DNA from: an uncultured Alphaproteobacteria bacterium
GTDB lineage: Bacteria; Pseudomonadota; Alphaproteobacteria; HIMB59; GCA-002718135
Direction: 5' to 3'
Length of the DNA: 64,000 nucleotides
NCBI GenBank assembly: GCA_902522865.1
Contig: CABYXC010000001.1
Coordinates: forward strand, 121,693 to 185,692
Shown: positions 9,151-32,143 of the stretch, one piece after another
How the letters are laid out: each line of letters begins with the position of its first letter
Numbering within the stretch: the first letter of the stretch is position 1
Notes under the pieces: generated by a model
What the model was told of the DNA's origin: nothing
Databases searched by the model: none
Seen by the model: the letters and a program-made list of their open reading frames with translations, nothing else
Position numbers and translations under genes: made by a program

Positions 9151-9172
9151 CTTCTAAATTTTTATTGAAATT

Positions 9173-9526: not shown

Positions 9527-9528
9527 TT

Positions 9529-9699
9529 CTACTTTTCTTTTTTTATAAATATTTTACCACAATAACCACAAACAATTTTATTCTCATTATTGAAGGTATA
9601 ATAAACTGCGGGATGTCCTAAACCATCTTCACCACCATCGCAAGAGATAGTTTCGGTTTTTGGATCTACTTCCACAATATCTTCAGTCATAAAAGCCAT
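9529..9699 (-). CDS. 56-aa zinc-finger (zf-CHCC-like) protein, not in supplied ORF track
   Basis: My translation: MAFMTEDIVEVDPKTETISCDGGEDGLGHPAVYYTFNNENKIVCGYCGKIFIKKEK*. It shows a C...H...C..C pattern. The TAG stop lies 2 nt before the ATG of the next gene. Confidence 0.55.
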   Translation of the reverse strand: MAFMTEDIVEVDPKTETISCDGGEDGLGHPAVYYTFNNENKIVCGYCGKIFIKKEK

Positions 9700-14992: not shown

Positions 14993-16431
14993 TGCACAAA
15001 AAAATGATTAATGAAGCAATACGTATTGCTGGAGAAAAAGTTACTTCAGATAAAACAATAAATGTTGAGTACCCTTTTACAGGTGAAGTAATCGGAACGG
15101 TTCCAGCCGGTACCGCAGAGCATGCAAGAAAGGCTTTAGATATAGCTGCAAATTATCAGCCTAAACTTACAAGATATGAGAGACAAAAAATTCTTCAAAC
15201 TGCTGCAGAAGTACTTGTTAAAAGAAAAGAAGAAATTTCTGATATTATTACTTTAGAACTTGGTATCTCAAAACAAGATTCTTTATACGAAGTAGGAAGA
15301 GCTTTCGATGTATTTTCATTAACGGCTCAACTTTGTATTCATGATGATGGAGAAATATTTTCTTGTGATTTAACTCCACATGGAAAAGCCAGAAAAATAT
15401 TTACCATAAGAGAACCTTTAACGGCAATCTCAGCAATCACCCCATTTAATCATCCTTTGAATATGGTAGCGCATAAAATTGCACCTTCAATTGCAACTAA
15501 TAATTGTACTGTATGTAAACAAACAGAATTAACACCTTTAACAGCAATGGTACTCGCCGATGTTTTATATGAAGCAGGCCTGCCACCCGAAATGTTTTCA
15601 GTTGTAACTGGATGGCCTCAAGACATTGGATCAGAAATGATCAAAAATCCAAACATTGATCTAATTACTTTTACAGGCAGTGTGGGTGTAGGAAAATTAA
15701 TTGCTGAACAAGCTGGATACAAAAGAACTGTTCTTGAGTTAGGTGGTAATGATCCATTAATTGTTTTAAATGACTTAGATGGTGATGATCTTAAAAAAGC
15801 TGTTGAACTAGCTGTTACGGGAGCAACGAAAAATTCTGGTCAACGTTGTACAGCTGTTAAAAGAATATTGGTTCAAGAATCCATTGCAGATCAATTTGTT
15901 GAAATGGCTCTTGAGCGTGCAAAGAAAATTAAATTTGGTGATCCTATGAATATGGAAACAGACTTAGGTACAGTTGTTAATGTTCAAGCTGCAGAACTTT
16001 TTGATAAAAGAGTTTCTATGGCTGAAGAAGACGGCGCAAAAATTTTATATCACCCTGGAAGAAAGGGTGCTTTGTTACCTCCAATAGTTGTAGATCATGT
16101 TGATCCTAAAAGTGAATTAGTTTTAGAAGAAACATTTGGTCCAGTTATCCCAATCATTCGTGTGCCTAATGACGATGAAGCTGTAATGAAAATATCTAAT
16201 TCAACCGCATTCGGATTATCATCTGGTGTATGTACAAATAACTTCATGCGAGCAAAAAAATATATTCAAGGTTTAAATGTTGGTACGGTAAATATTTGGG
16301 AGGTTCCAGGTTATAGAATTGAAATGTCTCCTTTTGGAGGAATTAAAGATTCAGGTCTTGGTTACAAAGAGGGTGTTATTGAAGCAATGAAAAGCTTTAC
16401 TAATGTAAAAACCTTTTCGCTACCTTGGTAA
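14989..16431 (+). CDS. phnY: aldehyde dehydrogenase, probable phosphonoacetaldehyde dehydrogenase
   Basis: 480 aa. ALDH blocks ELGGN and GQRCTA (catalytic Cys). Translationally coupled to phnA. Confidence 0.75.
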
Positions 16432-16566: not shown

Positions 16567-17820
16567 ATGAAAAAATTAATTACAGGATTTGCAGCCGTAT
16601 TAGCTTTTGGTTTTTATGGTTCTGTTAATTCAGCTAAGTCTATTGAAATAGAAGTTGCTTATCCTTATTCAGGATTATTCGATGTTACGTTTCAAGCTAT
16701 TATGCCAGAGTTTGAAAAAGCACATCCAGATATTCAAGTTAAATTTAGAGCAACTTATGAAAACTATGAGGATGCAACTGCAACAATCTTCAGAGAGTCT
16801 ACTTCAGGTAATTTACCAGATGTAACAATGCAAGGTCTTAACAGACAAGCACCTCTAGTTGACAAAGGCATTGCTAAGTCTTTAGAGCCATTTATTGCAA
16901 AAGAAGCTGCTTTTGAAAAAGATGGTTACCATTCTGCTATGTTAAGTCTTTCAACATTTGGTGGTGAAGTTTATGGATTACCATTTTCTGTATCAACACC
17001 AGTTGGATATTATAACATGGATTTATTAGCTGAAGCAGGTGTAAATAGTATTCCAACTAACTGGGACGAAGTTATTGCAGCATGTAATAAATTGGAAGCA
17101 GCAGGTAAAGGAACTCTATACTTTGGTTGGAACATCACAGGTAACTGGTTCCACCAAGCATTAATGCACACTCAGAATGTTCCAATGGTTAAAGATGGAG
17201 CTGTAAATATGGGTGGTGATGCAGGACTTGCAACGTTAGAGCAAATGAAAGCAATCATGAGCGGATGTAATATGCCAAACTATTCAATTGCTGATGGTCA
17301 AGCTGCGTTTAACGCAGGTACTATTGGTATGATGTTCTGGTCTACTTCAAGCTTGGGTTCAGTTAATGCTGCAAAGGCAGACTTTGTTTTAAAGACTGCA
17401 CCATTCCCTGGAATGGCTGGAGTTAACAATGGAACACCTGCAAGATTACCAGCAGGTGGAAACGCTGCAATGTTAGTGTCTACATCTGATGATCCAGCAA
17501 GAGTTGATGCTGCATGGACTTTCTTAAAGTTCATTACATCAGGTATCGGTGCTGCATTAGTTGCTGAAACAACTGGATATGTTCCACCAAACAAAGCAGC
17601 GAATGAATTATTAGGTGATTTCTATAGTAAAAACCCTAATAAACTTACTGCAGTTGAACAACTTCCACTTCTTGCAGATTGGTTTGCATATCCTGGAGAA
17701 AATGGATTAGCTGTTACGCAGGTAATCTATGATTACACAGAAGAAATTGCTACAGGCGACGCTGATGATATGGCAGATCTCCAAGAAGAAATGATGGAAG
17801 AAATAAACGATCTTATGTAA
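16567..17820 (+). CDS. ABC transporter periplasmic substrate-binding protein, family 1
   Basis: 417 aa with signal peptide MKKLITGFAAVLAFGFYGSVNSA and a strong GGAGGG RBS. Probably the missing SBP for the divergent permease/ATPase genes. Confidence 0.8.
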   Translation: MKKLITGFAAVLAFGFYGSVNSAKSIEIEVAYPYSGLFDVTFQAIMPEFEKAHPDIQVKFRATYENYEDATATIFRESTSGNLPDVTMQGLNRQAPLVDKGIAKSLEPFIAKEAAFEKDGYHSAMLSLSTFGGEVYGLPFSVSTPVGYYNMDLLAEAGVNSIPTNWDEVIAACNKLEAAGKGTLYFGWNITGNWFHQALMHTQNVPMVKDGAVNMGGDAGLATLEQMKAIMSGCNMPNYSIADGQAAFNAGTIGMMFWSTSSLGSVNAAKADFVLKTAPFPGMAGVNNGTPARLPAGGNAAMLVSTSDDPARVDAAWTFLKFITSGIGAALVAETTGYVPPNKAANELLGDFYSKNPNKLTAVEQLPLLADWFAYPGENGLAVTQVIYDYTEEIATGDADDMADLQEEMMEEINDLM

Positions 17821-17907: not shown

Positions 17908-18987
17908 ATGCCTCTTAAAACAACTACAATAGGTGCTTATCCAAAACCGAAACAAACACCTATTCAAGATTGGTTTTTAGGGACAAAATCAGAAGAAGAG
18001 AGAAAAGCGTCAAAAGGATTATTATCAAATTGGTCACCTGGCGCATATGAAAAAGCATTAGAGTCTGCAGGTGTGGATGCTGAAAAATTATTTTTAGCAG
18101 CAATTAAAGAAGTTATAACTGATCAAGTAAATGCAGGTATCGATGTTCCAACAGATGGTGAAGTTAGGCGCGAGAGTTATGTATTATATCAATGTCGATT
18201 TTTAAATGGTGTAAGTTTTAAGGAAGTTACACATAAGTCAGTAAGACAAGGTGCGTTCGAAGCTGACCTTCCAACTATTGTTGCTCCAATTTCAAGTAAA
18301 GAAATACGTATGCATTTAGACTGGAAGAGTGCACAACAATTTACAAAAAACCCAGTTAAAATTACCCTACCTGGACCAATGACAATTACAGATTCAATTG
18401 CCAACAATTACTATGATGACATGAAAAAACTTGGTTTTGATTTAGCATTAGCCCTCAATAAAGAAGTTAAAGCACTTGTAGATGCAGGTTGTCAGTATAT
18501 TCAAATTGATGAACCAGTATTTGCTAGAAAGCCCGATGAAGCTCATTCTTACGGTATGGAAAATTTAGAAAGAATGATGCATGGTATTCCTAAAGAAGTG
18601 CAACGTGTTTGCCATATTTGTTGTGGTTATCCTAACTCATTAGATTCAGAAGGTTATAAAAAGGCTGATCTAGATGCTTATGATAGAATTGCATCACTTG
18701 TAGATGATTCAACTATTGATGAAGTATCTTTAGAAGATTCACATAGGCATAATGATTTAAATCTTTTAGAAAAATTTACTAAAACAAAAGTAATTTTTGG
18801 ATTTATTGATATTGCAAAAAGTAGAATGGAGTCTGTTGAAGAGGTAAGAGTTCGTATCAAAGATTCACTTGAACATATTGATGAACACCGCTTAATAGCT
18901 GCACCAGATTGTGGTTTAGGTTTCTTTACACGAGAACAAGCAATTGAGAAAATGACAATTTTAACTAAAGCGGCAAAATCAATTTAA
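17908..18987 (+). CDS. MetE C-terminal-domain-like Zn-dependent alkyl/methyltransferase (short, single-domain)
   Basis: 359 aa. N-terminal TTTIGAYPKP. Putative Zn ligands H-x-C in VCHICCGYP and Cys in APDCGLG, as in cobalamin-independent methionine synthase-type enzymes. Confidence 0.65.
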   Translation: MPLKTTTIGAYPKPKQTPIQDWFLGTKSEEERKASKGLLSNWSPGAYEKALESAGVDAEKLFLAAIKEVITDQVNAGIDVPTDGEVRRESYVLYQCRFLNGVSFKEVTHKSVRQGAFEADLPTIVAPISSKEIRMHLDWKSAQQFTKNPVKITLPGPMTITDSIANNYYDDMKKLGFDLALALNKEVKALVDAGCQYIQIDEPVFARKPDEAHSYGMENLERMMHGIPKEVQRVCHICCGYPNSLDSEGYKKADLDAYDRIASLVDDSTIDEVSLEDSHRHNDLNLLEKFTKTKVIFGFIDIAKSRMESVEEVRVRIKDSLEHIDEHRLIAAPDCGLGFFTREQAIEKMTILTKAAKSI

Positions 18988-18991
18988 GGTA

Positions 18992-20104
18992 ATGTGGAAT
19001 TATTTTAATCCTGTTGAAATTATCTTTGGAGAAAATAGATTTAAAGAAGTACATGATGCTCTTAAAAATAAGAACTACATCATAATAACTCATCCAGAAG
19101 AAATTTTTAAAAAATATAGCGATGAATTAAAATCTTCTTCAAATCCACCACTATCCGTTATGACGGATGTTCAGCCTAATCCAGATTATAAGGATATTTT
19201 AGAGCTACAAAAAAAATTTTCTTCAATCAATGAATCGGTAGATTATATTTTAGCTATAGGTGGTGGCTCTGTTACAGACACAGCTAAAGCAATTGCTGCA
19301 TTTAAAGATAAACAAGAATATCTAACAGATTTCGTTCGCAATAAGAAAAGTCCAAGAGTCGAAAATCCAATCAAGATTATTGCAATACCTACAACTTCAG
19401 GAACATCAAGTGAGCTTACGTGTTGGGCCACAATTTGGGATAAAGAAAAAAACAATAAATTATCTTTGGCGCATAAATCTCTTTATGCAGAAAAAACAAT
19501 TATCGATCCATCTATTATGGTTGATAAGCCTTTAGGCTTGACCATTTCAACTGGTTTAGATGCTCTCTCCCATTCAATGGAAAGTATTTGGAATATTAAT
19601 GCAAATCCAGTTTCTGCTTCTCATGCAATACAAGCATCAAAATTAGTATTAGAAAATTTACCACTTCTCACTAAAGATTTAAGAAATGTTGAATTACGCT
19701 CAAACATTGCATTGGCTTGTGTTCATGCTGGTTTAGCGTTTTCCAATACGAAAACTGCTATTGCGCACAATCTATCATACCCTGTGACACTCAATTACGG
19801 TATTCAGCATGGTATTGCTTGTTCATTTACTTTACCCATGATTACTAAAAGTATGGTTGGAATTGATAGTGTAGCTGAGGAGAGACTAAAATTAATTTTT
19901 AACGATAATTTAGAAAACGCTGCAAATCATCTGAGTGAATTTATGCGTTCTTTAGAGGTTCCTCTTAACTTAAATGAAATAAAAGTTCCTGTTCAAGAAT
20001 GGAATAATATAGTAGATGATGCGTTTTTAGGGGAACGAGGTAAAAACTTTATTGGTAATAAAGAAGCCTTCATTTCTTCGGCTAAATCAATGGGACTTTA
20101 TTAG
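18992..20104 (+). CDS. iron-containing (group III) alcohol dehydrogenase
   Basis: 370 aa. AIGGGSVTDTAK glycine motif and His-rich metal-site blocks (LDALSHSMES, AIAHNLSYP). Confidence 0.8.
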   Translation: MWNYFNPVEIIFGENRFKEVHDALKNKNYIIITHPEEIFKKYSDELKSSSNPPLSVMTDVQPNPDYKDILELQKKFSSINESVDYILAIGGGSVTDTAKAIAAFKDKQEYLTDFVRNKKSPRVENPIKIIAIPTTSGTSSELTCWATIWDKEKNNKLSLAHKSLYAEKTIIDPSIMVDKPLGLTISTGLDALSHSMESIWNINANPVSASHAIQASKLVLENLPLLTKDLRNVELRSNIALACVHAGLAFSNTKTAIAHNLSYPVTLNYGIQHGIACSFTLPMITKSMVGIDSVAEERLKLIFNDNLENAANHLSEFMRSLEVPLNLNEIKVPVQEWNNIVDDAFLGERGKNFIGNKEAFISSAKSMGLY

Positions 20105-20106
20105 TA

Positions 20107-21213
20107 ATGAAAAAAAATTTCAGGTTTTATGATAACAGACAAAAATATTTATTATTTGTCACAACAACAAATGAAAAAAATCAAATTGCTGAAGCGATAC
20201 GTCCTCACGTAAATAAAATTAAACCGCAAAAACCTGGCTTAAAAATATTTGATGCCGGTATGGGTGATGGTTCCTTACTTATGAATGTTATGCGTCAGTG
20301 CCACGAAGCTAGGCCTAATGTACCTCTATTAGTTTGCACAAAAGAAATAAGTATTGAAGATGTAAGATTAGGTTTAGAAAAACTACCCGATAGGTTTGTT
20401 GAACATAAGAATACGGTTTTTGTTATTTCAAATCTACACTACGCTGAAGCTGCAAACCTAAAATCAAAAAATGACGTTAAACAGAAAAAAATTAATTGGA
20501 ATATTATTAAATTAAAAGGAGACACTTCTCTTGAATTTGCTCAACAATTAAGAAAACAAAATGAATTTTTAGAAAAAAAATGGAATATAGAAATTAACAA
20601 AAAGTCAGGTAACCATACTTATAAAGAGCCTTCAGTCATGGTTATCTACCGTGAAGATCAAGAATTTAATGTAAATGAATTAATACCTACCAAAAAAAAA
20701 TCAGATAATAAATTTGATCTCATTATTGCTTCACAGCCTTATCGTTCAAGAATTTCAGCAGAAAAGAAATCAAAATACGTCATCGAACCAATGATTAGAG
20801 CGTTAAAATCAAAAGGGAAATTATTAACTATTCATGCTTCAGGAAAAGATCCTGCTAATGAAATAATTCGTAAAATTTGGCCAAAAGAGGACCCATTTCC
20901 TTCTCTTGGAAATAGTATCATTTCTTATCTTAAGAAAAATTTAGATAAAGATTTGTTAAGCAGTTTATCTTTTGGAGAAAAAAGAATTATTAAATGTAAA
21001 TTGAGAGCTCTACCAACAGAAATCAGCGGAGGTATAGCGACATCATTAGTTTTTTCTGCTTGGAATGCCTCCATATATGTCAATCAAATGGATGATGATA
21101 AAGTAATGAAGGTAGAAAAAACAAAAAACTATGAAAAAATTGTTCAAAATATTGTTGCGAAAAATAAAGGCCTTTATTTCAACAATGAAATATTTGTAAT
21201 CGAAAAAAAATAA
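20107..21213 (+). CDS. hypothetical protein with class-I SAM-methyltransferase-like motif (possibly histamine N-methyltransferase-like fold)
   Basis: 368 aa. IFDAGMGDGS resembles SAM motif I. Later blocks are FDLIIASQPY and KGKLLTIHASG. The family assignment rests on recollection only. Confidence 0.35.
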   Translation: MKKNFRFYDNRQKYLLFVTTTNEKNQIAEAIRPHVNKIKPQKPGLKIFDAGMGDGSLLMNVMRQCHEARPNVPLLVCTKEISIEDVRLGLEKLPDRFVEHKNTVFVISNLHYAEAANLKSKNDVKQKKINWNIIKLKGDTSLEFAQQLRKQNEFLEKKWNIEINKKSGNHTYKEPSVMVIYREDQEFNVNELIPTKKKSDNKFDLIIASQPYRSRISAEKKSKYVIEPMIRALKSKGKLLTIHASGKDPANEIIRKIWPKEDPFPSLGNSIISYLKKNLDKDLLSSLSFGEKRIIKCKLRALPTEISGGIATSLVFSAWNASIYVNQMDDDKVMKVEKTKNYEKIVQNIVAKNKGLYFNNEIFVIEKK

Positions 21214-21217
21214 TTTT

Positions 21218-22018
21218 TTATTTAAACCAATTAACTTCTGTTTTTAAAAAATCCTCTGTATGAATAATTAAAGCGTCAGATCGAATTATTGCAACATTAT
21301 AATTTGTATCTGTATTAGCCGTTCCTAAACGATATTCATTTGAAAAGTTAGGTATTAGAGGAGACCAAGTACTTCTTGGGGAGGAAAAAGTAATTCCACA
21401 ATAAGAACCAGAACTTGTAATGTGTTGATGACCAAAAAAAATATGTTTTATTATCTTATTATTTTTAGTTAAAATTTGTTGAAACTCTTTTTTTTGTTGT
21501 AATCCTATTCCATCACTTTCCTCTTTTACTAATGCCAGTGGATTATGATGCATAAAGATGTACGTATCTGTATTAGTTTTACCTAAAATATTATTTAACC
21601 ATTCTTGCCTCTCTTCACAGTAATGTCCTTGGTGAGTGTTAATTAGATTAGTATCTATAAAAATTAAACGTTTATTATCTATATCCTTAAAGTATTGAAT
21701 AAATCCATTTGGATCGGTTTCAATATTAGGAAAGTTTATTTTAAACTCATCTCTGTTATCATGATTACCTATAATGAGTTGAGGATTTAAATTCTTTGGC
21801 AGGCCTGCTTCATCAATGATTTTTATAAATAACTGATAAGAATCTTTATCACCTAAGTCTGTAATATCGCCAGTGATGGCAAATAAATCTGCATCACCAT
21901 GATTATTTTTTATATGACTTAATGCTTTTTTAAATTTACTGACAGGATCTATGCCATGAATCTTATCTATATAAATATGAGGGTCTGAAAGATGAATAAT
22001 TTTCATTATTTTATACAA
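21218..22018 (-). CDS. calcineurin-like metallophosphoesterase (CpdA/GpdQ-type phosphodiesterase)
   Basis: 266 aa. Motifs HLSDPH, GDITDLG, GNHD, MHHNP, GHQH. The likely true start is the internal MKIIHLSD. Confidence 0.8.
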   Translation of the reverse strand: MYKIMKIIHLSDPHIYIDKIHGIDPVSKFKKALSHIKNNHGDADLFAITGDITDLGDKDSYQLFIKIIDEAGLPKNLNPQLIIGNHDNRDEFKINFPNIETDPNGFIQYFKDIDNKRLIFIDTNLINTHQGHYCEERQEWLNNILGKTNTDTYIFMHHNPLALVKEESDGIGLQQKKEFQQILTKNNKIIKHIFFGHQHITSSGSYCGITFSSPRSTWSPLIPNFSNEYRLGTANTDTNYNVAIIRSDALIIHTEDFLKTEVNWFK

Positions 22019-22026
22019 ATTTATAA

Positions 22027-22659
22027 TTAGATCGCAGTTTTAAAATAAATATACTTATTAAATTCCTCTTTTAAGTCGATGCTAACTCTTGCATGTACTT
22101 TACCTTGTTTTCCATGAAATGATTGTTTTTCTTTAACTGGAAACACCCCTTCATGCCAAATGTTTGGATGAATATACAAACCTTTTGATCCATCACAATA
22201 AAATGCTTTGAAATGTTCTGGTTCGATGTCGTCTGTTGGTAAAGCTAAAGGACAAATAAATGGTTTATTTTCTGCAGGAAAAAAAAGCTGACCTCCATCA
22301 GGATGATAATTTGCATGCCATAGAAATATTTTTGTTGGATCTGAATATTTATCTTTTTGCAATTCTTGATCGGGGTTATTGGCATAACCCAGTATATATT
22401 TTCCATCTACTTCATAATCGCTCTTATGTTGGACAGCATTATTTTGTCCATAAAGCACATCACCTTGCCACCAGGTATCAAAAGAACCTTCGGTAGTTCC
22501 ACCTTCATTACCAGTTCCCTCTTCTATGTCGCGCCATCCTTGTTTTGGCCAAGTAACAATTTCAATATCACTATTTTCAAAACTATCGATTAAATATCCG
22601 TATCCTTTAAGATTTTCATTTGTTGCTTTAACTAATGGTATTTCAATTTCTTTTGTCAT
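22027..22659 (-). CDS. ureidoglycolate-lyase-like / cupin-fold protein, function unknown
   Basis: 210 aa. Block order LKGYGYLI ... NYHPDGGQLFFP ... KAFYCDGSKGLYIHPNIWHEG parallels AllA-type ureidoglycolate lyase as I remember it. Confidence 0.5.
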   Translation of the reverse strand: MTKEIEIPLVKATNENLKGYGYLIDSFENSDIEIVTWPKQGWRDIEEGTGNEGGTTEGSFDTWWQGDVLYGQNNAVQHKSDYEVDGKYILGYANNPDQELQKDKYSDPTKIFLWHANYHPDGGQLFFPAENKPFICPLALPTDDIEPEHFKAFYCDGSKGLYIHPNIWHEGVFPVKEKQSFHGKQGKVHARVSIDLKEEFNKYIYFKTAI

Positions 22660-22666
22660 TATTTTG

Positions 22667-23764
22667 TTAGTTTAATGTTAATCCCAATTCAGTAACGACT
22701 TCTTTTACAGCTTTTATTGTATCCATCATGTCTTGTTCATCTAAATTACCAATACACCCAATTCTAAAAGTTTCTGCCACTGTTAGTTTTCCTGGATAAA
22801 TTAAAAAATCTTTTTCACTAAGAGCATTATAAAATTTCTCAAAGTCAAATTTAGGATCATTAGGTTGTTTAAACGTAATAATAATTGGTGCTTGTAAATT
22901 ATCAGGAAGTAATTGCTCAAATCCCAACTCTTTCATTCCATTACAAATAATTTCACAATTTTTTTTATATCTTTTACCTCTTCCTTTTACACCGCCTTGT
23001 TCTTTATGTTCTTCAATAGCTTGGTTGAATGCAGCTAATACGTGTGTTGGAGGTGTAAATCGCCATTGTTTATTTTTTTCCATTGCTTGCCATTGATCAT
23101 ACAAGTCTAGACTTAGTGAGTGACTATTGCCTTTTGCATTTTGAATAACTTCATTTTTAACAAGAATGAAACCAACACCTGGCACACCTTCTAAGCATTT
23201 GTTTGATGAAGCGGCTACAGCATCAAAAGTAATTGTTTTAGAACTTAAGGGTAATGCACCAAAGGCACTCATTGCATCGATGAATAACGATAAATTTTTC
23301 CCCTCAACCAATTTTGCAATGTCTTCAATAGGATTTAAAATACCCGATGTTGTTTCACAATATACAGCAAAGACGTGTGTTAAGTTGTTGCTATCAATTA
23401 AGTCTTCAATTTTATTGATGTCATGTACTTCATGTTCAGCAACTTCATATTCAATAAAATCTCTCCCTAAATATGTGCACATTTTTTTCATTCTTTGTCC
23501 GTAAGCACCATTGATCAGAATCAGAATTTTAGAATCTTTTTGAGTAAGAGAGCTTACCATCGACTCTACGGCAAAAGTTCCACTTCCCTGCATTGGAACA
23601 CATTGATATTTATCTTCACCGTCTATTAATTTAACAAGGGAATCTCTAATTGATGCATTGAGATCAATAAATTTTGTATCTCTCGAACCCCAATCATGAA
23701 GCATAGCCTCTTTTGTTGACATCGATGTCGTGAGAGGACCAGGGGTTAATAATTTTTTATCCAT
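22667..23764 (-). CDS. phnW: 2-aminoethylphosphonate:pyruvate aminotransferase
   Basis: 365 aa class-V aminotransferase. LLTPGPLTTS N-terminus, SSNKCLEGVPG PLP-lysine block. Phosphonate gene context. Confidence 0.8.
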   Translation of the reverse strand: MDKKLLTPGPLTTSMSTKEAMLHDWGSRDTKFIDLNASIRDSLVKLIDGEDKYQCVPMQGSGTFAVESMVSSLTQKDSKILILINGAYGQRMKKMCTYLGRDFIEYEVAEHEVHDINKIEDLIDSNNLTHVFAVYCETTSGILNPIEDIAKLVEGKNLSLFIDAMSAFGALPLSSKTITFDAVAASSNKCLEGVPGVGFILVKNEVIQNAKGNSHSLSLDLYDQWQAMEKNKQWRFTPPTHVLAAFNQAIEEHKEQGGVKGRGKRYKKNCEIICNGMKELGFEQLLPDNLQAPIIITFKQPNDPKFDFEKFYNALSEKDFLIYPGKLTVAETFRIGCIGNLDEQDMMDTIKAVKEVVTELGLTLN

Positions 23765-23852
23765 TAAATATTTACTTAATAAATATTATTATAAATTTGA
23801 TCAATCTTATTAAAGTTGGAATTGAATTTATTTTCTAATAAGTTAATTATAA

Positions 23853-24428
23853 ATGAAAATGGAAGAAAATATTGTAGACTATCTCTTACATCTTTTGAAA
23901 ACAAAAGGTGCTGATATTCAATATGGTAATGAGGATGTGACCCAGCTTGAGCACGCACTCCAATGTGCTGAACTTGCTGAAAAACATAAATTACCAGGAC
24001 CAACAATTGCTGCAGCATTACTGCATGATGTTGGCCACCTTATCTATGAGGACGGCGATCCCATTCATGAAGGGAAAGATGGTCATCATGAAAATTTAGG
24101 TGCTGATTTTTTAAAAAAATATTTTGGTGAGGATGTTATTCTACCAATTAGAGCACATGTTGACTCAAAAAGATATTTATCAAGTGTTGAAGAAGGTTAT
24201 TATGATAGTCTATCAGAAGCATCGAAACTTTCGTTAAAAGTTCAAGGTGGTCCTTTCACAAAAGAAGAAGCAGATGCGTTTATAAGCAAACCTTTTATGG
24301 ATGAAGCAGTAGAGCTTAGAAGATTTGATGATTTAGCAAAAATTCTAGATAAAAAAACTCCCGATGTTGAACATTTCCGCCCCTATTTAGAAGAAGCAAG
24401 ACAGTCTTTTTTAGCTAAACAAGCGTAA
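23853..24428 (+). CDS. HD-domain protein of the PhnZ/TmpB phosphonate-oxygenase type
   Basis: 191 aa. QLEHALQCAELA and AALLHDVGHL blocks match my memory of PhnZ (QLEHSLQCA, AALLHDLGH). Further His/Asp ligands follow (HHEN, HVDSKRY). Confidence 0.65.
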   Translation: MKMEENIVDYLLHLLKTKGADIQYGNEDVTQLEHALQCAELAEKHKLPGPTIAAALLHDVGHLIYEDGDPIHEGKDGHHENLGADFLKKYFGEDVILPIRAHVDSKRYLSSVEEGYYDSLSEASKLSLKVQGGPFTKEEADAFISKPFMDEAVELRRFDDLAKILDKKTPDVEHFRPYLEEARQSFLAKQA

Positions 24429-24953
24429 ATGCAATTTAGCAATTATGATTTTATTGACTCTAAGTCATTTGCAGGCAAAATTATATTAACTTCTTTCCCA
24501 GGTCTTAACTCTAATGGTTTATTTGAAGAAACAATTTTAGCAAACGAATTAGAAATATTTAAAAATAATAATTGTAGTTCTATTACTTCTTTTGTTGAAG
24601 ATAGCGAATTTGAAAAATTGTGTGATAAAACTTTGTTTGTCAAAAATATTTATGAACATAAATTACATTGGTACCATTTACCCATTTATGACATGGGAGC
24701 ACCAGATAAAGATTTTAAATATAAATGGGAAACAACAAAAGTTTTATTAAAGAACGAATTGATAGATGGTAAAAACATAGTTTTACATTGCCGTGGAGGA
24801 AAAGGAAGAGCTGGCACTATAGCTGCTATTTTACTTGTTGAATTTAATTATGAAAAACAAGAAGCTATTGATCTAGTACGATCAAGAAGAAAAGGAGCTA
24901 TTGAGTCAAAAATCCAAGAAGATTTTATTTTTTCTTATCGAGCAGTTAATTAA
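24429..24953 (+). CDS. CX5R dual-specificity/tyrosine-phosphatase-fold protein
   Basis: 174 aa. Active-site HCRGGKGRAGT. Starts 1 nt after the HD gene stop. Confidence 0.7.
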   Translation: MQFSNYDFIDSKSFAGKIILTSFPGLNSNGLFEETILANELEIFKNNNCSSITSFVEDSEFEKLCDKTLFVKNIYEHKLHWYHLPIYDMGAPDKDFKYKWETTKVLLKNELIDGKNIVLHCRGGKGRAGTIAAILLVEFNYEKQEAIDLVRSRRKGAIESKIQEDFIFSYRAVN

Positions 24954-26002
24954 AAAGAGACCGTTAAATTAAAAATATTTTCTAGAATAAATAAAACAAT
25001 TAAAGAAATTAAAGCTGTAATTATAGGTAGCGTCATCCAACCCAAAGAAATTCTACCTGCAATTGACCATTGAACCTCTTTTCCTCCTTTTAAAAGACCA
25101 ATTCCAATTATGCCGCCGACAACAGCTTGGGAACTTGATACTGGTACCAAAGGTATAGAGGGAAGATTTATAGATTGTAAAAAAGCACTTATACCCTGGG
25201 ATGCAAATAAAAATAAAACAATAGAATGCGATATAACAACAATAAATGCTGCCACTGGTGTCATTTTTAAGAGATCATTACCCACGGTAAACATAACTCT
25301 TTTCGAGTAAGTAAAAACACCAACAGCTATTGCTAAACCACCCAGCAGAAATAATTGTTCTTTTGAGGAAAAGACAAATAAATTTCCAATAGTAACATCA
25401 GTAAACGGTGATATAGGTACGAAGACACCCATTACATTGGCAATATTGTTTGCACCTAAACTATAAGCACCAAAAGCACCCGCTAAAAGTAAAGCTGTTC
25501 TTGTATAGGCATCAAGTCTGAGAATATGTAACTTTCTATTGAGTATAACTCTTTTTGTAAAAGTAAATAAACCCATTGCAATAACTCCTGCAATAATAGG
25601 ACAGAGTATCCATGTTCCTAAAATAGTAATTAAAACTTGAAGATTAGTTGAAGATCCCGTGTATAAATTCCAACCAACAATTGCTCCAACAATCGCTTGC
25701 GTTGTTGAAACAGGCAAGCCAACTTTAGTCATTAAATAAACAGATATTCCTGCAGCAACACATGCTGCAAAAGCACCAGGCAATGCATTAATAGCACCTA
25801 ACTTTCCTAAGGTTTCTGTTGTACCTGCTCCGCTAATAATTGCACCTAGAATAACAAAGACACTACAAATTATTGCTGCACTTGTGAAACTAACCATTCG
25901 TGTTCCAACTGCAGTTCCAAAAACATTTGCTGCATCATTGGCACCAAGTGACCAACCTAAAAAAAGACCACCAAATAAAAAAATTAGAATTGTAATTTCC
26001 AT
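24950..26002 (-). CDS. pit: PiT-family inorganic phosphate transporter
   Basis: 350 aa polytopic protein with GANDAANVFGT and a second GANNIANV signature. Confidence 0.85.
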   Translation of the reverse strand: MEITILIFLFGGLFLGWSLGANDAANVFGTAVGTRMVSFTSAAIICSVFVILGAIISGAGTTETLGKLGAINALPGAFAACVAAGISVYLMTKVGLPVSTTQAIVGAIVGWNLYTGSSTNLQVLITILGTWILCPIIAGVIAMGLFTFTKRVILNRKLHILRLDAYTRTALLLAGAFGAYSLGANNIANVMGVFVPISPFTDVTIGNLFVFSSKEQLFLLGGLAIAVGVFTYSKRVMFTVGNDLLKMTPVAAFIVVISHSIVLFLFASQGISAFLQSINLPSIPLVPVSSSQAVVGGIIGIGLLKGGKEVQWSIAGRISLGWMTLPIITALISLIVLFILENIFNLTVSF

Positions 26003-26008
26003 TGAAAA

Positions 26009-26671
26009 TTAAACGGAACGTTTAATAGCGAAAATTTGAACCTCGTCAGCTATGTCTTCTGCTTGATCACAAATACGATCAATCTTTTCTACAAAATATC
26101 GAAGATGCATTTTTTGATCTAGAGGTAATTCAGAATCAAAAATTCTTCTTGCAAGTGAACTAAATTTTATATCAGATTCTTTTTCATAAAAAGTTACTTT
26201 ATGAGCATTATCTCTAACAGATTTAATATCTCTAAAAAATGATCGGACAGTCAAACAAAGTGACTCAACACAATTTACAACAGTCTCTGTTAACTCAATA
26301 AGATCTTCATGAAATTCTTTTGGAAAATTAGGTTTTTGAATAGAGAAGTGATAGCAATTTCCTTGGTACATTCCAATTAATTCGTCGATGTGTTCTAGAA
26401 GTCGTAACACATCACTTCTTGCATCTGGGATTAGTGTTTCTTCATAAAGAGTATGCTCAACATCTTTTGTAATTTTGTCGGCCTTACTTTCCATTTCTTT
26501 AACTTTTTCAACCATTTCCTCAAATTTACCATTGGCGGAATGATTGAGATAAGTTGGAACTATCGATTTAAATACTAAGCCCACTTCAGAGACAATATCA
26601 ACAAACTCATCAATTTCTCTTTCAAGCTTTTTGGTATCACCAAATAATGATGCACTTTTTAATCCAAACAT
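26009..26671 (-). CDS. DUF47/PhoU-like phosphate-transport accessory protein
   Basis: 220 aa helical protein directly upstream of pit, the usual pairing. Confidence 0.75.
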   Translation of the reverse strand: MFGLKSASLFGDTKKLEREIDEFVDIVSEVGLVFKSIVPTYLNHSANGKFEEMVEKVKEMESKADKITKDVEHTLYEETLIPDARSDVLRLLEHIDELIGMYQGNCYHFSIQKPNFPKEFHEDLIELTETVVNCVESLCLTVRSFFRDIKSVRDNAHKVTFYEKESDIKFSSLARRIFDSELPLDQKMHLRYFVEKIDRICDQAEDIADEVQIFAIKRSV

Positions 26672-26794: not shown

Positions 26795-27022
26795 ATGACA
26801 GATTTATCAATTAATAGAATTAAGTGGTTTAGCACCGCGTTAATTTTATCAGGAATATTATTAACCAATTTAAATGCGTATCCAATTAACATAATTATTC
26901 ACGGTACAGGTGCTGTTGGTTGGTCAATTGTTGGTTATATGACAAAAGATAGAGCTCTGCTTACAAACTTTGGTTTACAGCTCCCACTATTTATTTTTGG
27001 ATATATTTATTTGCTAGCATGA
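26795..27022 (+). CDS. small membrane protein, unknown function
   Basis: 75 aa with 2-3 hydrophobic helices. AGGAGA RBS. ATGA overlap with arsC suggests co-translation. Confidence 0.45.
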   Translation: MTDLSINRIKWFSTALILSGILLTNLNAYPINIIIHGTGAVGWSIVGYMTKDRALLTNFGLQLPLFIFGYIYLLA

Positions 27023-27438
27023 AAAATAAAAATATTCTATTTATGTGTGTTGCTAATTCATCAAGAAGTCAAATGGCTGAAGGAATTGCAAAAAAATTAT
27101 ATCCTAATTGCATTATTAAAAGTGCAGGATCAGTACCCAAAGAAGTCAATCCTAATGCAATTTTGGTTATGAGTGAGATCGATATTGATATATCAAAACA
27201 TTATTCAAAAGATTTTGAAAGTTTAGACAATAAGTTCAGAGATGAATTAAATACCGTTTTTACACTTTGTAAAGAAGAGGTATGCCCAGTTTTAAATTCT
27301 AAAGCTCAGATACTTTCAATTCCATTTGATGATCCTGCATCAGATCGTTTTAGTTCAAACCAATTAGATAAGTTTAGAGAAGTAAGAGATTCAATTTTTG
27401 ATAAATTGAAAGAACTAAAAAATTTATTTGAGAATTAA
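27019..27438 (+). CDS. arsC: arsenate reductase, LMW-PTP (thioredoxin-coupled) type
   Basis: 139 aa. CVANSSRSQMAEG (CX5R-S) P-loop plus downstream Cys residues. Confidence 0.75.
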   Translation: MKNKNILFMCVANSSRSQMAEGIAKKLYPNCIIKSAGSVPKEVNPNAILVMSEIDIDISKHYSKDFESLDNKFRDELNTVFTLCKEEVCPVLNSKAQILSIPFDDPASDRFSSNQLDKFREVRDSIFDKLKELKNLFEN

Positions 27439-28492: not shown

Positions 28493-28599
28493 TACGTCTG
28501 TAAAAAAACAATTTTCATTTCAATTTTTACCCCTTTTTTTTATCATGCCTTTAACAATTTTTTAATACTTCATATTTAATAATGATGAAGGAGATTTTT

Positions 28600-30012
28600 A
28601 TGAAAAATAATTTAATAATTACTTTTCTTATCTGTACTATTGTTTCTCTAACCAATGTTGTTTTAGCACATTCTTATGTGGTTTCTAATTCAAAGGATAG
28701 CGGTGATGGATCTATTAGAGCAGCTATAGAAAATGCCAATAAGTCGGCTGGTGCAAATGTAATTTACATAAAGAGTGGAAATAATATTAAAATTTTATCA
28801 TCTTTAAGTTATACTAGTACAGCACCATTATTTATTTATGGTCAGGGCCAAACAATTCACGCTATGGATGATTTTACAATTCTTGAATCAACAAATGGCG
28901 GTGATATGTCTATACACTCAATAAATTTCAGAGGTCCTGGAGGTTTTAATATTGAAAACCGTGCTGATTTAGATGGTGTAGGTGGTAAAGGAATTTTGTT
29001 AAATGTTAGAGACAATCAATATGGAATGGTTAAATTAGTTCTTAACGATGTAAAGGTTTCTGATGTTGCTAACCACGGGATTCATGTATCCGATTGCGAT
29101 GTTGGTGCAACGTGTGGTGCAGGCGGGGGAGGAGCAGGCGGCGGTTCGCCAGCTTCTATTTCTGTTTCCTTAAATAATGTAGTTGTTGACAATGTTGGTC
29201 AAGGAATGTTTGATGCCGACGGTCTGCGTGTAGATGAAAGAGACGATGGAGATCTAATTGCTTCTATTTTAAACTCTTCGTTTACGAGAGTCGGTGCAGA
29301 TGGAGTAGAGCTTGATGAAGGTCAAGCTGGCTCAGTTATTGCACAGATTGAAAATACATCATTTAATAACAATGGTTATTATTGCCACCCAGATATTTTG
29401 GAAGCCTATCTCCCTGAAGAAGACGAAGGTGAATTTGAAGATGGTCAGATGACTGAATCAGCTGTACCACCTGCTATTACTGGATCTCCAGATGATGGCT
29501 GTTTTGAAAGAGAAGTAAGTCTTTATGACAGTGGTTTTGTTGAAGAATATGAATTTGGTATTGATGTTGACGATGGATTTGATGTGGATGAAGCAGGTCC
29601 TGGAGATATCTACGCTGAAGTAACTCGATCAACAATTATTGGTAACTGGGATGAAGGTCTTGACTTTGATGAGGAACAAGAAGGATCAATTAACATGACA
29701 ATCATTGATACAATTGCACTAAGCAATACAGATGATGGATATAAACATTCTGAAGAAGGTCCAGGAAATGTAAGTGCTTTTGTTATCAATTCATCATCTG
29801 AAGACAATGGTGGAAAAGGTTTTGTTTTCGAAGAAGAAGAAGCAGGCAATGTTATGATCATGGCACAAGATGTTACCACATCAAATAATGATGATAGTGA
29901 TGGAACTGGAATGGAACTTGTCCAAGAAGATTCAGGTTATGGTATTGTCAGATCTATTTCTTCAAGTATCACAGACGGATTTGATATAGAAGGTGTTGAG
30001 TCGATTAATTAA
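28600..30012 (+). CDS. secreted, highly acidic parallel-beta-helix-like repeat protein, unknown function
   Basis: Track ORF starts at 28582, but AAGGAG lies 6 nt before the ATG at 28600. Signal peptide MKNNLIITFLICTIVSLTNVVLA. About 7 coils with a D-G-x-x-x-D-E-x-x-x-G pattern. Poly-Gly tract GAGGGGAGGGS. Confidence 0.5.
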   Translation: MKNNLIITFLICTIVSLTNVVLAHSYVVSNSKDSGDGSIRAAIENANKSAGANVIYIKSGNNIKILSSLSYTSTAPLFIYGQGQTIHAMDDFTILESTNGGDMSIHSINFRGPGGFNIENRADLDGVGGKGILLNVRDNQYGMVKLVLNDVKVSDVANHGIHVSDCDVGATCGAGGGGAGGGSPASISVSLNNVVVDNVGQGMFDADGLRVDERDDGDLIASILNSSFTRVGADGVELDEGQAGSVIAQIENTSFNNNGYYCHPDILEAYLPEEDEGEFEDGQMTESAVPPAITGSPDDGCFEREVSLYDSGFVEEYEFGIDVDDGFDVDEAGPGDIYAEVTRSTIIGNWDEGLDFDEEQEGSINMTIIDTIALSNTDDGYKHSEEGPGNVSAFVINSSSEDNGGKGFVFEEEEAGNVMIMAQDVTTSNNDDSDGTGMELVQEDSGYGIVRSISSSITDGFDIEGVESIN

Positions 30013-30344: not shown

Positions 30345-31151
30345 ATGAAAGATCAGCAATCAGTTTCATATTATAGAACTATATGGATATCTGATCTTCA
30401 TCTTGGAACAGAAAATAGCAAGAGTGAAATGCTTCTTGAATTTTTGAGATCAACAGATTCAAAATATTTATTTTTAGTTGGCGATATTATTGATGCATGG
30501 AGAATGAAAAAAAAAATTTATTGGCATCAAACTCATAATGACATTATCCAGAAGATTTTGCGTAAAGCAAGAAAAGGTACAAAAGTTATATTTATCCCAG
30601 GTAATCATGACGAACTTGTAAAAAGTTACACAAGTTTTTCACTAGGGAATATATCAATAAAAAATAAGTTTACACACAAACTAGCTGATGGAAGAAATGC
30701 CCTTGTTTTACATGGTGATGAATTTGATGCAGTTATAATAAATGCTAAATGGCTGGCAAGTATTGGGTCATCCCTATACGAATTTATATTAAAGTTGAAT
30801 AACTATCTAAATTTTGTCAGAAGAAAACTAGGTCTGTCTTATTGGTCATTATCTCAATTTCTCAAACATCAAACAAAAAGAGCCACGAATTTTATTTCTA
30901 ACTTTGAGTTTGCCGTATCTGATAGCGCTAAAAGAGCAAATGCCGATGTTGTTGTGTGCGGCCATATTCATAAGCCCGTTATAAAAAAATTAAACGGAGT
31001 GTTATATTGCAATGATGGTGATTGGGTTGAGAGTTGTTCTGCGCTAGTGGAAAATAAAGAGGGACAATTATCCCTTATTGACTGGTCAATTGAAAGAGAA
31101 AAAATTTTTCAACATAAACATAACAAACTAGCAGAAAGTGTATCAGTGTGA
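30345..31151 (+). CDS. plcP: LpxH-like metallophosphoesterase, PlcP-type phospholipase C candidate (island copy)
   Basis: 268 aa. WISDLHLG, GDIIDAW, GNHD, HGDEFD, GHIH motifs. Roughly 70% identical by eye to the 37589-38401 product. 4-nt overlap with the glycosyltransferase gene. Confidence 0.7.
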   Translation: MKDQQSVSYYRTIWISDLHLGTENSKSEMLLEFLRSTDSKYLFLVGDIIDAWRMKKKIYWHQTHNDIIQKILRKARKGTKVIFIPGNHDELVKSYTSFSLGNISIKNKFTHKLADGRNALVLHGDEFDAVIINAKWLASIGSSLYEFILKLNNYLNFVRRKLGLSYWSLSQFLKHQTKRATNFISNFEFAVSDSAKRANADVVVCGHIHKPVIKKLNGVLYCNDGDWVESCSALVENKEGQLSLIDWSIEREKIFQHKHNKLAESVSV

Positions 31152-32143
31152 AAAAATTAGCGATCATTACCGATGCTTGGCTTCCTCAAGTTAATGGTGT
31201 TGTAAATACATACCTACATATTAATCCATTTTTAAAACAAAAGTATCAAATTGAAGTACTCCACCCAATGATGTTTACTAATTTTAGTTATCCTTGGTAT
31301 AAGGAAATAAAAATAGCAATTAATACAAAAAAAATAACAGAAAAATTTTTTGGTGATTATGATCCTGATGTTATACATATTGCCACTGAAGGGCCAGTTG
31401 GAATTGCGGGGAAAAAATTCTGTGAGAAAAATAGGTTGAGATATACAACTTCTTTTCATACGAGATTTCCAGAATACATAGAGCAGAGAATAATGATACC
31501 AAAAATAATTGGGTACTCTTTTTTAAAAAATTTTCATAAAAATGCATGTAATGTATTGGTCCCAACAGTATCTATGCGAAACGAATTAACTAAATATCAA
31601 TTTCAAAATCTTAAAATTTGGTCAAGGGGAGTTAATACTGAATTATTTAATCCTTTAAAAAGAAGAAAAGGACTGAAAAAGTATATTGTTTACATTGGTA
31701 GAGTTTCATTAGAAAAAAACATCGAAGCGTTTTTAGAAATAAGAACTAAGATGGATAAAATTGTTGTTGGAGATGGTCCAGAAAAACAACGACTACAAAA
31801 TAAATATCCATATGTATCTTTCGTTGGGATGAAAAAAGGTCAAGACTTAGCAAATTATTATGCAAATGCTGAAGCGTTGGTATTCCCATCCAAAACAGAT
31901 ACATTTGGAAATGTAATTTTAGAGTCTTTAGCCTCTGGAACACCAGTGGCTGCTTACCCAGTAACAGGTCCTAAAGATATTTTAAAAAACTCATTAATTG
32001 ACAGTCTTGATAACGATATTGAAAACTCACTTAAAAAAGCCTTAAAGATTGATAGAAATGATTGTAGAAAATTTGCAATGCAATTTACTTGGGATAGATG
32101 TGCAAATCAATTTCTATCTAATATTGTAAATGCAAAAAATTAA
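31148..32143 (+). CDS. agt: GT4-family glycosyltransferase, Agt-type glycolipid synthase candidate (island copy)
   Basis: 331 aa. C-terminal FPSKTDTFGNVILESLASGTPV (E-x7-E-type GT4 block). Paralog of 36598-37599. Confidence 0.7.
   Translation: MKKLAIITDAWLPQVNGVVNTYLHINPFLKQKYQIEVLHPMMFTNFSYPWYKEIKIAINTKKITEKFFGDYDPDVIHIATEGPVGIAGKKFCEKNRLRYTTSFHTRFPEYIEQRIMIPKIIGYSFLKNFHKNACNVLVPTVSMRNELTKYQFQNLKIWSRGVNTELFNPLKRRKGLKKYIVYIGRVSLEKNIEAFLEIRTKMDKIVVGDGPEKQRLQNKYPYVSFVGMKKGQDLANYYANAEALVFPSKTDTFGNVILESLASGTPVAAYPVTGPKDILKNSLIDSLDNDIENSLKKALKIDRNDCRKFAMQFTWDRCANQFLSNIVNAKN

Follow-up and report, generated by a model that had tools for sequence, protein, structure and literature searches.

The closest described relatives of the system examined herein are the PhnY*/PhnZ pathway (clone HF130_AEPn_1; structures 4MLM/4MLN) and the TmpA/TmpB pathway for trimethyl-2-aminoethylphosphonate (Leisingera caerulea; structure 6NPA), in which the genes for a 2-oxoglutarate (2OG)-dependent hydroxylase and an HD-domain oxygenase form adjacent pairs (PMC8177086). 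In the present study, we analyzed 64,000 nucleotides of contig CABYXC010000001.1 from an uncultured alphaproteobacterium (hereafter, the window), in which a gene for a PhnZ/TmpB-type HD-domain protein is directly followed by a gene for a cysteine phosphatase with a CX5R motif (Cys-phosphatase). An initial annotation, made from the sequence alone, noted that the HD protein lacks a partner hydroxylase and offered three options: its substrate arrives already hydroxylated, the neighboring cupin hydroxylates it, or the HD protein is a plain phosphohydrolase.

Clusters of the phnWAY type with an orphan PhnZ have been described before. In the work of Zangelmi et al. (2021; PMC8154272), 24 of 75 phnWAY clusters carried phnZ without phnY*, whereas 19,425 genomes contained no more than 7 phnY*Z clusters. 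PhnW and PhnX handle (R)-1-hydroxy-2-aminoethylphosphonate ((R)-HAEP) poorly, and the phnZ association was read as separate processing of (R)-HAEP. These clusters encode the same PhnW, PhnY, PhnA, and PhnZ set without a 2OG hydroxylase as the window, and the proposed logic is also the same, namely a separate outlet for imported (R)-HAEP that PhnW and PhnX cannot handle. However, that survey of complete genomes mentions no Cys-phosphatase, AllA-like cupin, or metallophosphoesterase, whereas in the window the phosphatase gene is part of the phnZ transcription unit, and the cluster is located in the Pho island of SAR11 (Pelagibacterales). In the ocean, PhnZ and PhnY* reached 9.4 and 1.6%, respectively, of GOS genome equivalents (Villarreal-Chiu et al. 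2012; PMC3266647), phnZ was listed in HTCC7211 (Grote et al. 2012), and, in one global survey, Pelagibacterales hold 45% of marine phnZ sequences, with frequent co-occurrence of phnA or phnX (Lockwood et al. 2022; PMC9381506). Subclades of PhnZ that have been characterized are rare in marine waters (Murphy et al. 2021, PMC8316502; a 2023 review, PMC10574752), and the abundant SAR11 type is, therefore, an uncharacterized subclade.

Our best overall explanation, to which we give an even chance, is an orphan PhnZ acting on imported hydroxy-phosphonates, accompanied by an accessory phosphatase of the scavenging module. Without a dedicated 2OG hydroxylase, the PhnZ-family protein would act alone on 1-hydroxy-phosphonates obtained ready-made from seawater; its most likely substrate would be (R)-HAEP, yielding glycine and phosphate. 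This route would run beside the PhnW-PhnY-PhnA route for 2-aminoethylphosphonate (AEP) and the PhpC route for 2-hydroxyethylphosphonate. By analogy with the characterized enzymes, we consider this oxygenase half probable. The phosphatase half is more tentative: the enzyme would be co-expressed as an accessory of the aminophosphonate-scavenging module, not as a C-P cleavage step, and the substrate from which it frees phosphate would most likely be a phosphoester or phosphoanhydride that is small and strongly anionic. We assign it to this module, and not demonstrably to PhnZ chemistry, because its lineage appears to have originally ended an AEP importer operon. The first option of the initial annotation, a substrate that arrives hydroxylated, is thus the best-supported reading and one that has already been published (PMC8154272). 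What is new is the conserved Cys-phosphatase, its apparent origin in the AEP importer operon, a single move to phnZ, and the accompanying changes in its P-loop.

The HD oxygenase and the search for its hydroxylase

The HD open reading frame (ORF) encodes 191 amino acids, with QLEHALQCA at residues 31-39 and LLHDVGHL at residues 56-63, as initially annotated. The HD protein has more than 1000 database homologs and the phosphatase has 247 close homologs. Since both sets are large and their catalytic residues are strongly conserved, both ORFs are real genes. Met3 is the near-invariant start among the HD homologs; therefore, the true start may be at 23859. We assigned the window to SAR11 because dozens of GORG-Tropics single-cell genomes, labeled as uncultured Alphaproteobacteria, Pelagibacteraceae, or Pelagibacterales, encode an HD protein with 95-100% identity to that of the window.

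The family call of the initial annotation was borne out. The Pfam score of the HD-domain fold (PF01966) exceeded its cut-off of 22 bits, and that of TIGR03276 (Phn-HD, phosphonate degradation HD-domain oxygenase) narrowly missed its cut-off of 214.6 bits. The scores for TmpB (154.5 bits) and the hydroxymethylphosphonate dioxygenase (152.5 bits) were far below the NCBIfam equivalog cut-offs of 300 bits. The best PDB matches were TmpB (6NPA; E 2.6e-32, 115.6 bits) and PhnZ (4MLM; E 7.5e-29). In the alignment to PhnZ and TmpB, the diiron ligand set is complete, with H34, H58, D59, H79, H102, and D159 corresponding to H34, H58, D59, H80, H104, and D161 of PhnZ; the YxxE loop is represented by Y24 and E27, and H62 is likewise conserved. 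None of these nine residues varies among 16 homologs, which extend down to 68% identity. K106, S124, S127, Q131, and R156/R157 are also invariant and align with residues that we take to be phosphonate-binding in PhnZ. The H…HD…H…H…D motif and the substrate-gating YxxE loop (Y24/E27 in PhnZ, Y30/E33 in TmpB) distinguish PhnZ and TmpB from HD hydrolases (PMC8177086). The membership of the HD protein in the C-P oxygenase family is well supported by these sequence features.

Since the score lies under the TIGR03276 cut-off and far below those for TmpB and the hydroxymethylphosphonate enzyme, the protein appears to form a separate subclade and not to be an equivalog of any characterized enzyme. It has the HD fold, six ligands, Tyr24/Glu27, His62, and approximate length (190 amino acids) of PhnZ, but is approximately 40% identical or less and has no adjacent PhnY*; it belongs to an abundant SAR11 subclade separate from the three that have been characterized. 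TmpB is the best-scoring structure and has the YxxE loop and ligands in common; however, there is no TmpA partner in the window and nothing pointed to a quaternary-amine substrate.

The initial annotation reported no 2OG/Fe(II) dioxygenase ORF in the window, and the Pfam, tblastn, and solved-structure searches agreed. Pfam revealed no PhyH, TauD, or 2OG-FeII_Oxy domain in approximately 60 ORFs of the window, including every ORF of at least 200 amino acids. In tblastn, a FrbJ-like phosphonate hydroxylase probe gave nothing better than E = 0.4 against the window, and the ORFs without a Pfam family at 20107-21213 and 28582-30012 had no oxygenase-like match among solved structures. Clustering of the ORFs without a window counterpart in the ±10 kb flanks of 85 related loci identified no recurrent dioxygenase-like family, and the FrbJ-like probe had no match in 1.77 Mb of SAR11-like loci (the loci only, not the rest of the genomes). 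An adjacent PhnY*/TmpA-type partner was found neither in the window nor within ±10 kb in approximately 100 SAR11 loci.

An exception was contig L002, on which a TauD-family protein closest to FrbJ (5EQN, E 3.8e-57) is encoded at 4821-5795, 4 kb from an HD gene whose product is 73% identical. However, the GC content of this contig drops from 47 to 31% at approximately 7500-7750, exactly where the cupin-phnW-HD block starts. The contig appears to be either a chimeric assembly or a foreign or horizontally transferred phosphonate block beside a phosphonate hydroxylase. Because of this switch at the junction, we did not accept the gene as evidence for a hydroxylase.

The cupin was the other candidate for the hydroxylation step. 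It has 210 amino acids, PF04115 (ureidoglycolate lyase) as its sole Pfam family, and 5348 homologs in a very large, tightly conserved family with invariant H77, H114, H118, D120, H163, H168, E169, H188, and R190. Its AlphaFold model was of moderate quality (pLDDT 70), and the best Foldseek matches of the model were AllA ureidoglycolate lyases, including 2bdr and 1xsq (E 2.6e-7 to 9e-6). With the same model, 2OG/JmjC oxygenases matched only at E > 0.01 with a TM-score of approximately 0.26, and neither Foldseek nor Pfam revealed the double-stranded beta-helix with an HxD/E…H triad of 2OG oxygenases. The cupin gene starts 7 nt after phnW and follows it in nearly all loci, whereas the HD gene is present without a cupin gene within 10 kb in L003, L084, and L085. 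Thus, the second option of the initial annotation was unsupported. We found no description of this cupin in the literature on phosphonate clusters, and it may represent a new enzyme with an accessory role in AEP catabolism.

In one related locus (L090:5595-7343, minus strand), PhnW and the cupin read as a single 582-amino-acid ORF. A fusion, if real, would tie the cupin to PhnW chemistry. We rejected it as probably an indel artefact because an aldehyde dehydrogenase gene on the same contig is broken into four pieces and the 7-nt gap may be closed by one indel.

The Cys-phosphatase and its genomic history

The second ORF encodes 174 amino acids, with HCRGGKGRAGT at residues 120-130; its ATG (24429) immediately follows the TAA stop (24426-24428) of the HD ORF, and both points were correctly noted in the initial annotation. 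The resulting TAAATG junction is kept in most loci, and the phosphatase gene is, judging from this arrangement, co-transcribed with the HD gene. In 78 of the 85 loci, phnW is divergent from the HD gene and less than 200 nt away; the 88-nt region between the two genes in the window presumably holds the promoters of both operons. In an alignment of this region from nine diverged loci, the proteins of which are only approximately 75% identical, two elements are conserved: a core resembling TTATCAAT, and TCTAATAAGTTAA ahead of the HD start. They may represent a regulator binding site. A consensus promoter scan of the intergenic region gave chance-level results, and nothing informative came from terminator and Rfam scans.

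The phosphatase scored 48.7 bits for Pfam PTP-SAK (cut-off 27) and 29.9 bits for DSPc, under the cut-off of 33.5. In a full-library search, the superfamily comprised 3432 representatives at E <= 1e-3, with a narrow SAR11-type clade of 8 at E <= 1e-30. The HCX5R P-loop contains the nucleophilic Cys and phosphate-binding Arg (H120, C121, R127), and D88 (PIYDMGAP) aligns with the Asp in the PIPDGGVP loop of SsoPTP, the catalytic role of which is presumably that of a general acid. No substitution of D88, H120, C121, G123, G124, G126, or R127 was seen among 22 close or 15 distant homologs; because of this invariance, the phosphatase should be catalytically active. No N-terminal signal peptide was found in its sequence, and the protein is therefore predicted to be cytoplasmic.

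SsoPTP and PRL/PTP4A are the closest solved sequences. The AlphaFold model was confident (pLDDT 90.5, pTM 0.87) and matched KAP/CDKN3, PRL-1/2/3, SsoPTP, Tk-PTP, and PTPMT1 in Foldseek (E 1.8e-9 to KAP and PRL-1; TM-score up to 0.78). The fold (TM-scores 0.65-0.78), the HCX5R P-loop, and the general-acid Asp in a PIxD motif are common to KAP/CDKN3, PRL/PTP4A, SsoPTP, and Tk-PTP; however, the window protein is only 20-30% identical to them, is bacterial, and is encoded in an operon with nutrient-scavenging genes. In contrast to these enzymes, its P-loop (CRGGKGR) has three basic residues and shares the pattern of basic positions with PTEN (HCKAGKGR). In a mutagenesis study, the number of basic P-loop residues, especially those at positions 2 and 5, controlled activity on polyphosphorylated substrates (Beresford et al. 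2010; PMC3091653), from which we infer a strongly anionic small substrate. Ala128 follows the catalytic Arg, as in PRL. We rejected this residue as a PRL-like hallmark because most permease-linked relatives have Ser or Thr and the feature is not family-wide.

Two other roles found little favor. An arsenate reductase is unlikely because the island already has a module of LMWPc-type ArsC and aquaporin, which has been described in SAR11 (PMC6426599). A role in a defense system was without support from PADLOC, the models of which gave no match to the phosphatase and only weak generic matches of the HD protein to the Cas10 HD domain. The PTP-SAK/Tc-R-P families derive from conflict systems.

We compared the neighborhoods of 176 loci carrying phosphatase homologs and of the 85 loci with ±10 kb flanks around the HD gene. 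In 89 of the 92 loci with a phosphatase at least 65% identical to the window protein, its gene comes immediately after the HD gene; the other cases are contig ends, and all of these phosphatases carry HCRGGKGR. Phosphatases 50-65% identical, on low-GC SAR11-like contigs, carry HCMGGKGR(S/T) or HCWGGKGRA and follow a 567-amino-acid fused permease in 11 of 15 loci. In five SAR11 loci (L003, L074, L079, L080, and L085), the two genes belong to separate transcription units, with the HD gene 4.9 kb upstream of the phosphatase gene; L110 has phnW and the cupin gene but lacks an HD gene over the 5.8 kb upstream of its phosphatase gene. The permease cassette beside these sister phosphatases scored above the NCBIfam cut-offs as PhnS2, PhnT2, and PhnU2, a putative 2-AEP ABC transporter. 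The same importer order, with the binding protein divergent and then the ATPase, permease, and phosphatase, was found on four non-SAR11 contigs (37-44% GC), in which the phosphatase is 32-42% identical and has the P-loop HC[MK]GGLGRS. The permease and phosphatase genes overlap or are separated by 3 nt, with overlapping stop and start codons in the non-SAR11 contigs. No HD or phnW gene was detected within the four non-SAR11 loci, and two of these (L117 and L154) had no phosphonate catabolic gene within 10 kb. Both of the latter carry a gene for a SerB-like HAD phosphatase convergent with the Cys-phosphatase gene (L117:6581-7558; L154:3982-4959), and L117 also carries a Na/Pi cotransporter-like gene near the operon (8034-9689).

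In a neighbor-joining tree, the HD-linked phosphatases form one clade nested in the permease-linked ones, with the permease-linked L102 protein (HCWGGKGRA) as sister and the non-SAR11 importer operons basal. The ancestral position of the phosphatase gene is accordingly predicted, from tree and gene order, to be the end of the AEP importer operon, and one relocation, or the loss of the intervening 4.9-kb cassette, would have placed it behind phnZ. Along the lineage, P-loop position 5 changed from Leu to Lys and then position 2 from Met/Trp to Arg (CMGGLGR to CMGGKGR to CRGGKGR). Adjacency to phnZ has since been kept through approximately 25-35% protein divergence and several rearrangements. PiT/PhoU_div genes flank the phosphatase gene in most loci; in 11 loci in which they are absent or separated, the HD and phosphatase genes stay paired. 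The pair is kept without PiT/PhoU_div in L056-L062, with extra DNA between it and PiT in L027, L028, L077, L081, and L082, and with an ABC cassette downstream in L087-L089. Thus, the pairing noted in the initial annotation is real. The functional coupling that the annotation implied is weaker because the lineage began as the terminal gene of an importer operon. Distant high-GC relatives beside genes for ADP-ribosylglycohydrolases or a 341-amino-acid uncharacterized protein are in unrelated contexts and gave no functional lead.

The importer is of the PhnS2/PhnT2/PhnU2 or AepXVW type (Murphy et al. 2021; PMC8316502). Published descriptions of this operon lack a phosphatase, whereas the sister SAR11 and non-SAR11 operons end with an orthologous one; in the window, there is no such cassette and the phosphatase gene stands behind phnZ. 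The ugpBAEC-ugpQ operon resembles the importer-phosphatase operon in architecture alone (an organophosphorus ABC importer, a terminal cytoplasmic phosphoesterase, and phosphate-starvation control), the enzyme family being unrelated; we regard this analogy as a lead for function, not as evidence.

In some SAR11 clades (L001:2835-5173 cluster, L003:9556-9954, L004:5173-6048, and also L005), a gene divergent from the HD gene encodes a kinase of the choline-kinase/APH family, with the guanitoxin kinase GntI as its closest match (131 bits). Its neighbor in L001 encodes a putative aminophosphonate oxidoreductase (618.8 bits for TIGR03329). The presence of a kinase in a phosphorus-scavenging cluster is unexpected.

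Alternative explanations and significance

Several points weigh against our explanation. Most of the 85 genome loci are from near-identical single-cell genomes and are not independent observations, and the phosphatase tree has no bootstrap support. The long-kept adjacency to phnZ and the P-loop change at relocation would also fit a functional link to PhnZ. Furthermore, PhnZ, TmpB, and the hydroxymethylphosphonate enzyme are all at roughly the same distance from the SAR11 HD clade; since this clade also scores under the TIGR03276 cut-off, (R)-HAEP as its substrate is a guess by analogy. The hydroxylase searches covered loci, not the remainder of these genomes, which would be compatible with a PhnY*/TmpA-type 2OG hydroxylase encoded elsewhere, in which case the HD enzyme would serve in the canonical oxidative AEP pathway of two enzymes. 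The wide occurrence of TauD/PhyH-family genes in bacteria and the FrbJ-like gene of L002 speak for this pathway. Nevertheless, we consider it quite unlikely: the flanks and the 1.77 Mb yielded no hydroxylase, the GC break marks L002 as chimeric or a foreign island, PhnWYA is already present for AEP, the known PhnY*Z and TmpAB genes are adjacent pairs, and phnZ greatly outnumbers phnY* in ocean metagenomes (PMC3266647). That the cupin (22027-22659) supplies the 1-hydroxylation would be in keeping with its many invariant His, Asp, and Glu residues, its conserved place in the divergent operon adjoining the HD gene, and the lack of an assigned function for this large family; the AllA fold, the coupling to phnW, and the HD genes without a cupin make it very improbable. 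An ordinary HD phosphohydrolase, such as a nucleotidase, is the least credible alternative, although most HD proteins are hydrolases (PMC8177086) and the TIGR03276 score is just under its cut-off. The combination of the six-ligand motif and YxxE loop has been reported only for PhnZ/TmpB oxygenases, all of the best family and structure matches are C-P oxygenases, and the gene is embedded in a phosphonate catabolic cluster. With His62 also conserved, these features argue against the third option of the initial annotation.

The phosphatase and PhnZ may instead form a true two-step pathway, in which the phosphatase unmasks the substrate and thereby stands in for the hydroxylase. It would remove phosphate from the 1-oxygen of an O-phosphorylated hydroxy-phosphonate, or cleave a phosphono-phosphate, to give the free 1-hydroxyl that PhnZ needs for iron binding. 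The kept TAAATG junction, the adjacency that survives PiT loss and ABC cassette movement, and the GntI/choline-kinase-like kinase divergent from the HD gene in L003-L005 and the L001 cluster fit this pathway, as does the Arg gained at P-loop position 2 on the move behind phnZ, since a three-basic, PTEN-like loop suits doubly anionic substrates. However, the phosphatase lineage occurs without a nearby HD gene in L110 and the four non-SAR11 operons, the two genes are in different operons in the five loci with the 4.9-kb spacing, and the kinase is absent from the window. We know of no natural masked hydroxy-phosphonate of this kind, and regard the pathway as improbable. Its specific form, in which SAR11 imports a hydroxy-phosphonate masked at the 1-oxygen by a phosphate or ester before the phosphatase unmasks it and PhnZ cleaves the C-P bond, is very doubtful. 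If true, the phnZ lineage that is most abundant in the surface ocean would possess a new two-enzyme route, with each substrate molecule yielding two phosphates. We also considered a regulatory phosphatase that, through a PRL-like long-lived phosphocysteine, modulates a transporter (the AEP importer or PiT) or Pho signaling. PRL-1/2/3, which are among the closest folds, bind transporter CBS domains, and PhoU closes the pst operon (pstSCAB-phoU) much as the phosphatase gene was the last of the importer operon. The Ala after the catalytic Arg, as in PRL and not Ser/Thr as in SsoPTP, and the location in the Pho island, beside PiT/PhoU_div in most loci, agree with such a role. On the other hand, this residue varies across the family, the general acid Asp88 and all other catalytic residues are invariant as in a working enzyme, neither a partner domain nor a target was identified, and the phosphatase persists without both the AEP importer and PiT in L056-L062. 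We regard a regulatory role as unlikely.

Published estimates of phnZ abundance range from approximately 20% of surface bacteria to less than 1% (PMC8316502, PMC10574752); they disagree because the SAR11-type phnZ belongs to no characterized subclade. The substrate of this type would settle its share of ocean phosphonate turnover. No description of the pairing with a Cys-phosphatase was found in the literature on phosphonate clusters and SAR11 phosphorus genes, in agreement with the initial statement that such an enzyme is part of no described phosphonate pathway. The phosphatase would thus be an unrecognized member of marine aminophosphonate clusters, attached first to the 2-AEP importer and then to phnZ. 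If it is only a general scavenging enzyme, the finding is a modest improvement in annotation. The two small soluble proteins, which are easy to express and assay, provide a concrete handle.

The phosphate-starvation island and further observations

From its gene content, the window is identified as a SAR11 phosphate-starvation island, which spans approximately 10.6 to 46 kb in Pfam and NCBIfam scans (Table 1). PhnW, PhnY, and PhnA all scored above the curated cut-offs, giving a complete hydrolytic 2-AEP pathway. The PhpC-type enzyme is probably a 2-hydroxyethylphosphonate dehydrogenase that supplies phosphonoacetaldehyde to PhnY; the role of degradative PhpC has been described (PMC13576164). 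The genes for PhnW, the cupin, and the SpdA-like metallophosphoesterase (21218-23764, minus strand) form a tightly packed operon that is conserved across SAR11 clades, with the last gene following the cupin gene in most loci. Other genes of the island include two PlcP-like/glycosyltransferase pairs, ppk, ppx, phoR, pstSCAB, phoU, and phoB.

Table 1. Features of the phosphonate region in the window
Feature	Position	Strand	Evidence
Ugp-like ABC importer, two permeases and ATPase	10599-13574	-	Pfam BPD_transp_1 (twice), ABC_tran, TOBE_2; NCBIfam UgpC 386 bits (cut-off 432)
PhnA, phosphonoacetate hydrolase	13751-14992	+	NCBIfam TIGR02335 465 bits (cut-off 407.55)
PhnY, phosphonoacetaldehyde dehydrogenase	14989-16431	+	NCBIfam TIGR03250 796.2 bits (cut-off 635.65)
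Ugp-like importer binding protein	16567-17820	+	NCBIfam UgpB-like 65 bits
PhpC-type Fe-alcohol dehydrogenase	18992-20104	+	NCBIfam TIGR03405 Phn_Fe-ADH 364 bits (cut-off 423.7)
SpdA/CpdA-like metallophosphoesterase, third gene of phnW operon	21218-22018	-	Pfam Metallophos 62.2 bits; NCBIfam SpdA 173 bits (under cut-off of 400)
Cupin, ureidoglycolate-lyase (AllA) family, second gene of phnW operon	22027-22659	-	Pfam PF04115 42.2 bits
PhnW, 2-aminoethylphosphonate:pyruvate transaminase	22667-23764	-	NCBIfam PRK13479 511.7 bits (cut-off 296); TIGR02326 459.3 bits (cut-off 400.8)
phnW/HD divergent intergenic region, 88 nt	23765-23852		Position between the two divergent genes
Predicted PhnZ-family HD-domain mixed-valent diiron oxygenase, 191 aa	23853-24428	+	Pfam HD 34.4 bits; NCBIfam TIGR03276 201.5 bits
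Predicted cytoplasmic CX5R Cys-phosphatase, minimal PTP/DSP fold, 174 aa	24429-24953	+	Pfam PTP-SAK 48.7 bits
PiT-family phosphate transporter	24950-26002	-	Pfam PHO4 205.7 bits; convergent with phosphatase, 4-nt 3' overlap
PhoU_div/DUF47 partner of PiT	26009-26671	-	Pfam PhoU_div 82 bits

The importer in the window is Ugp-like, whereas sister loci carry the PhnS2T2U2 type; therefore, SAR11 clades appear to pair the same catabolic core with different importers. The binding protein gene is followed by a conserved block (17908-21213, plus strand) encoding a MetE-like protein of the cobalamin-independent methionine-synthase type, the PhpC-type Fe-alcohol dehydrogenase, and an uncharacterized 368-amino-acid protein with an S-adenosylmethionine-dependent methyltransferase-like motif (FDAGMGDGS). 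This block may be a branch for hydroxyethyl- or N-methylated phosphonates.

An ORF at 28582-30012 (plus strand) encodes 476 amino acids with a signal-peptide-like N terminus and very acidic Asp/Glu/Gly-rich repeats; it had no Pfam family or PDB homolog and is present in few related loci (e.g., L059 and L061). The arsenate module noted above (27019-27438 and 35921-36577) is split in the window by approximately 8.5 kb, which encodes an acyltransferase, this acidic protein, a PlcP/GT4 pair, ppk, a SixA-like phosphatase, and ppx; its two genes are adjacent in L001 and other loci. The lipid-renovation module of a PlcP-like metallophosphoesterase and a GT4 glycosyltransferase is present twice (30345-32143, plus strand; 36598-38401, minus strand). 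Related loci hold one or the other of these pairs, whereas the window holds both.

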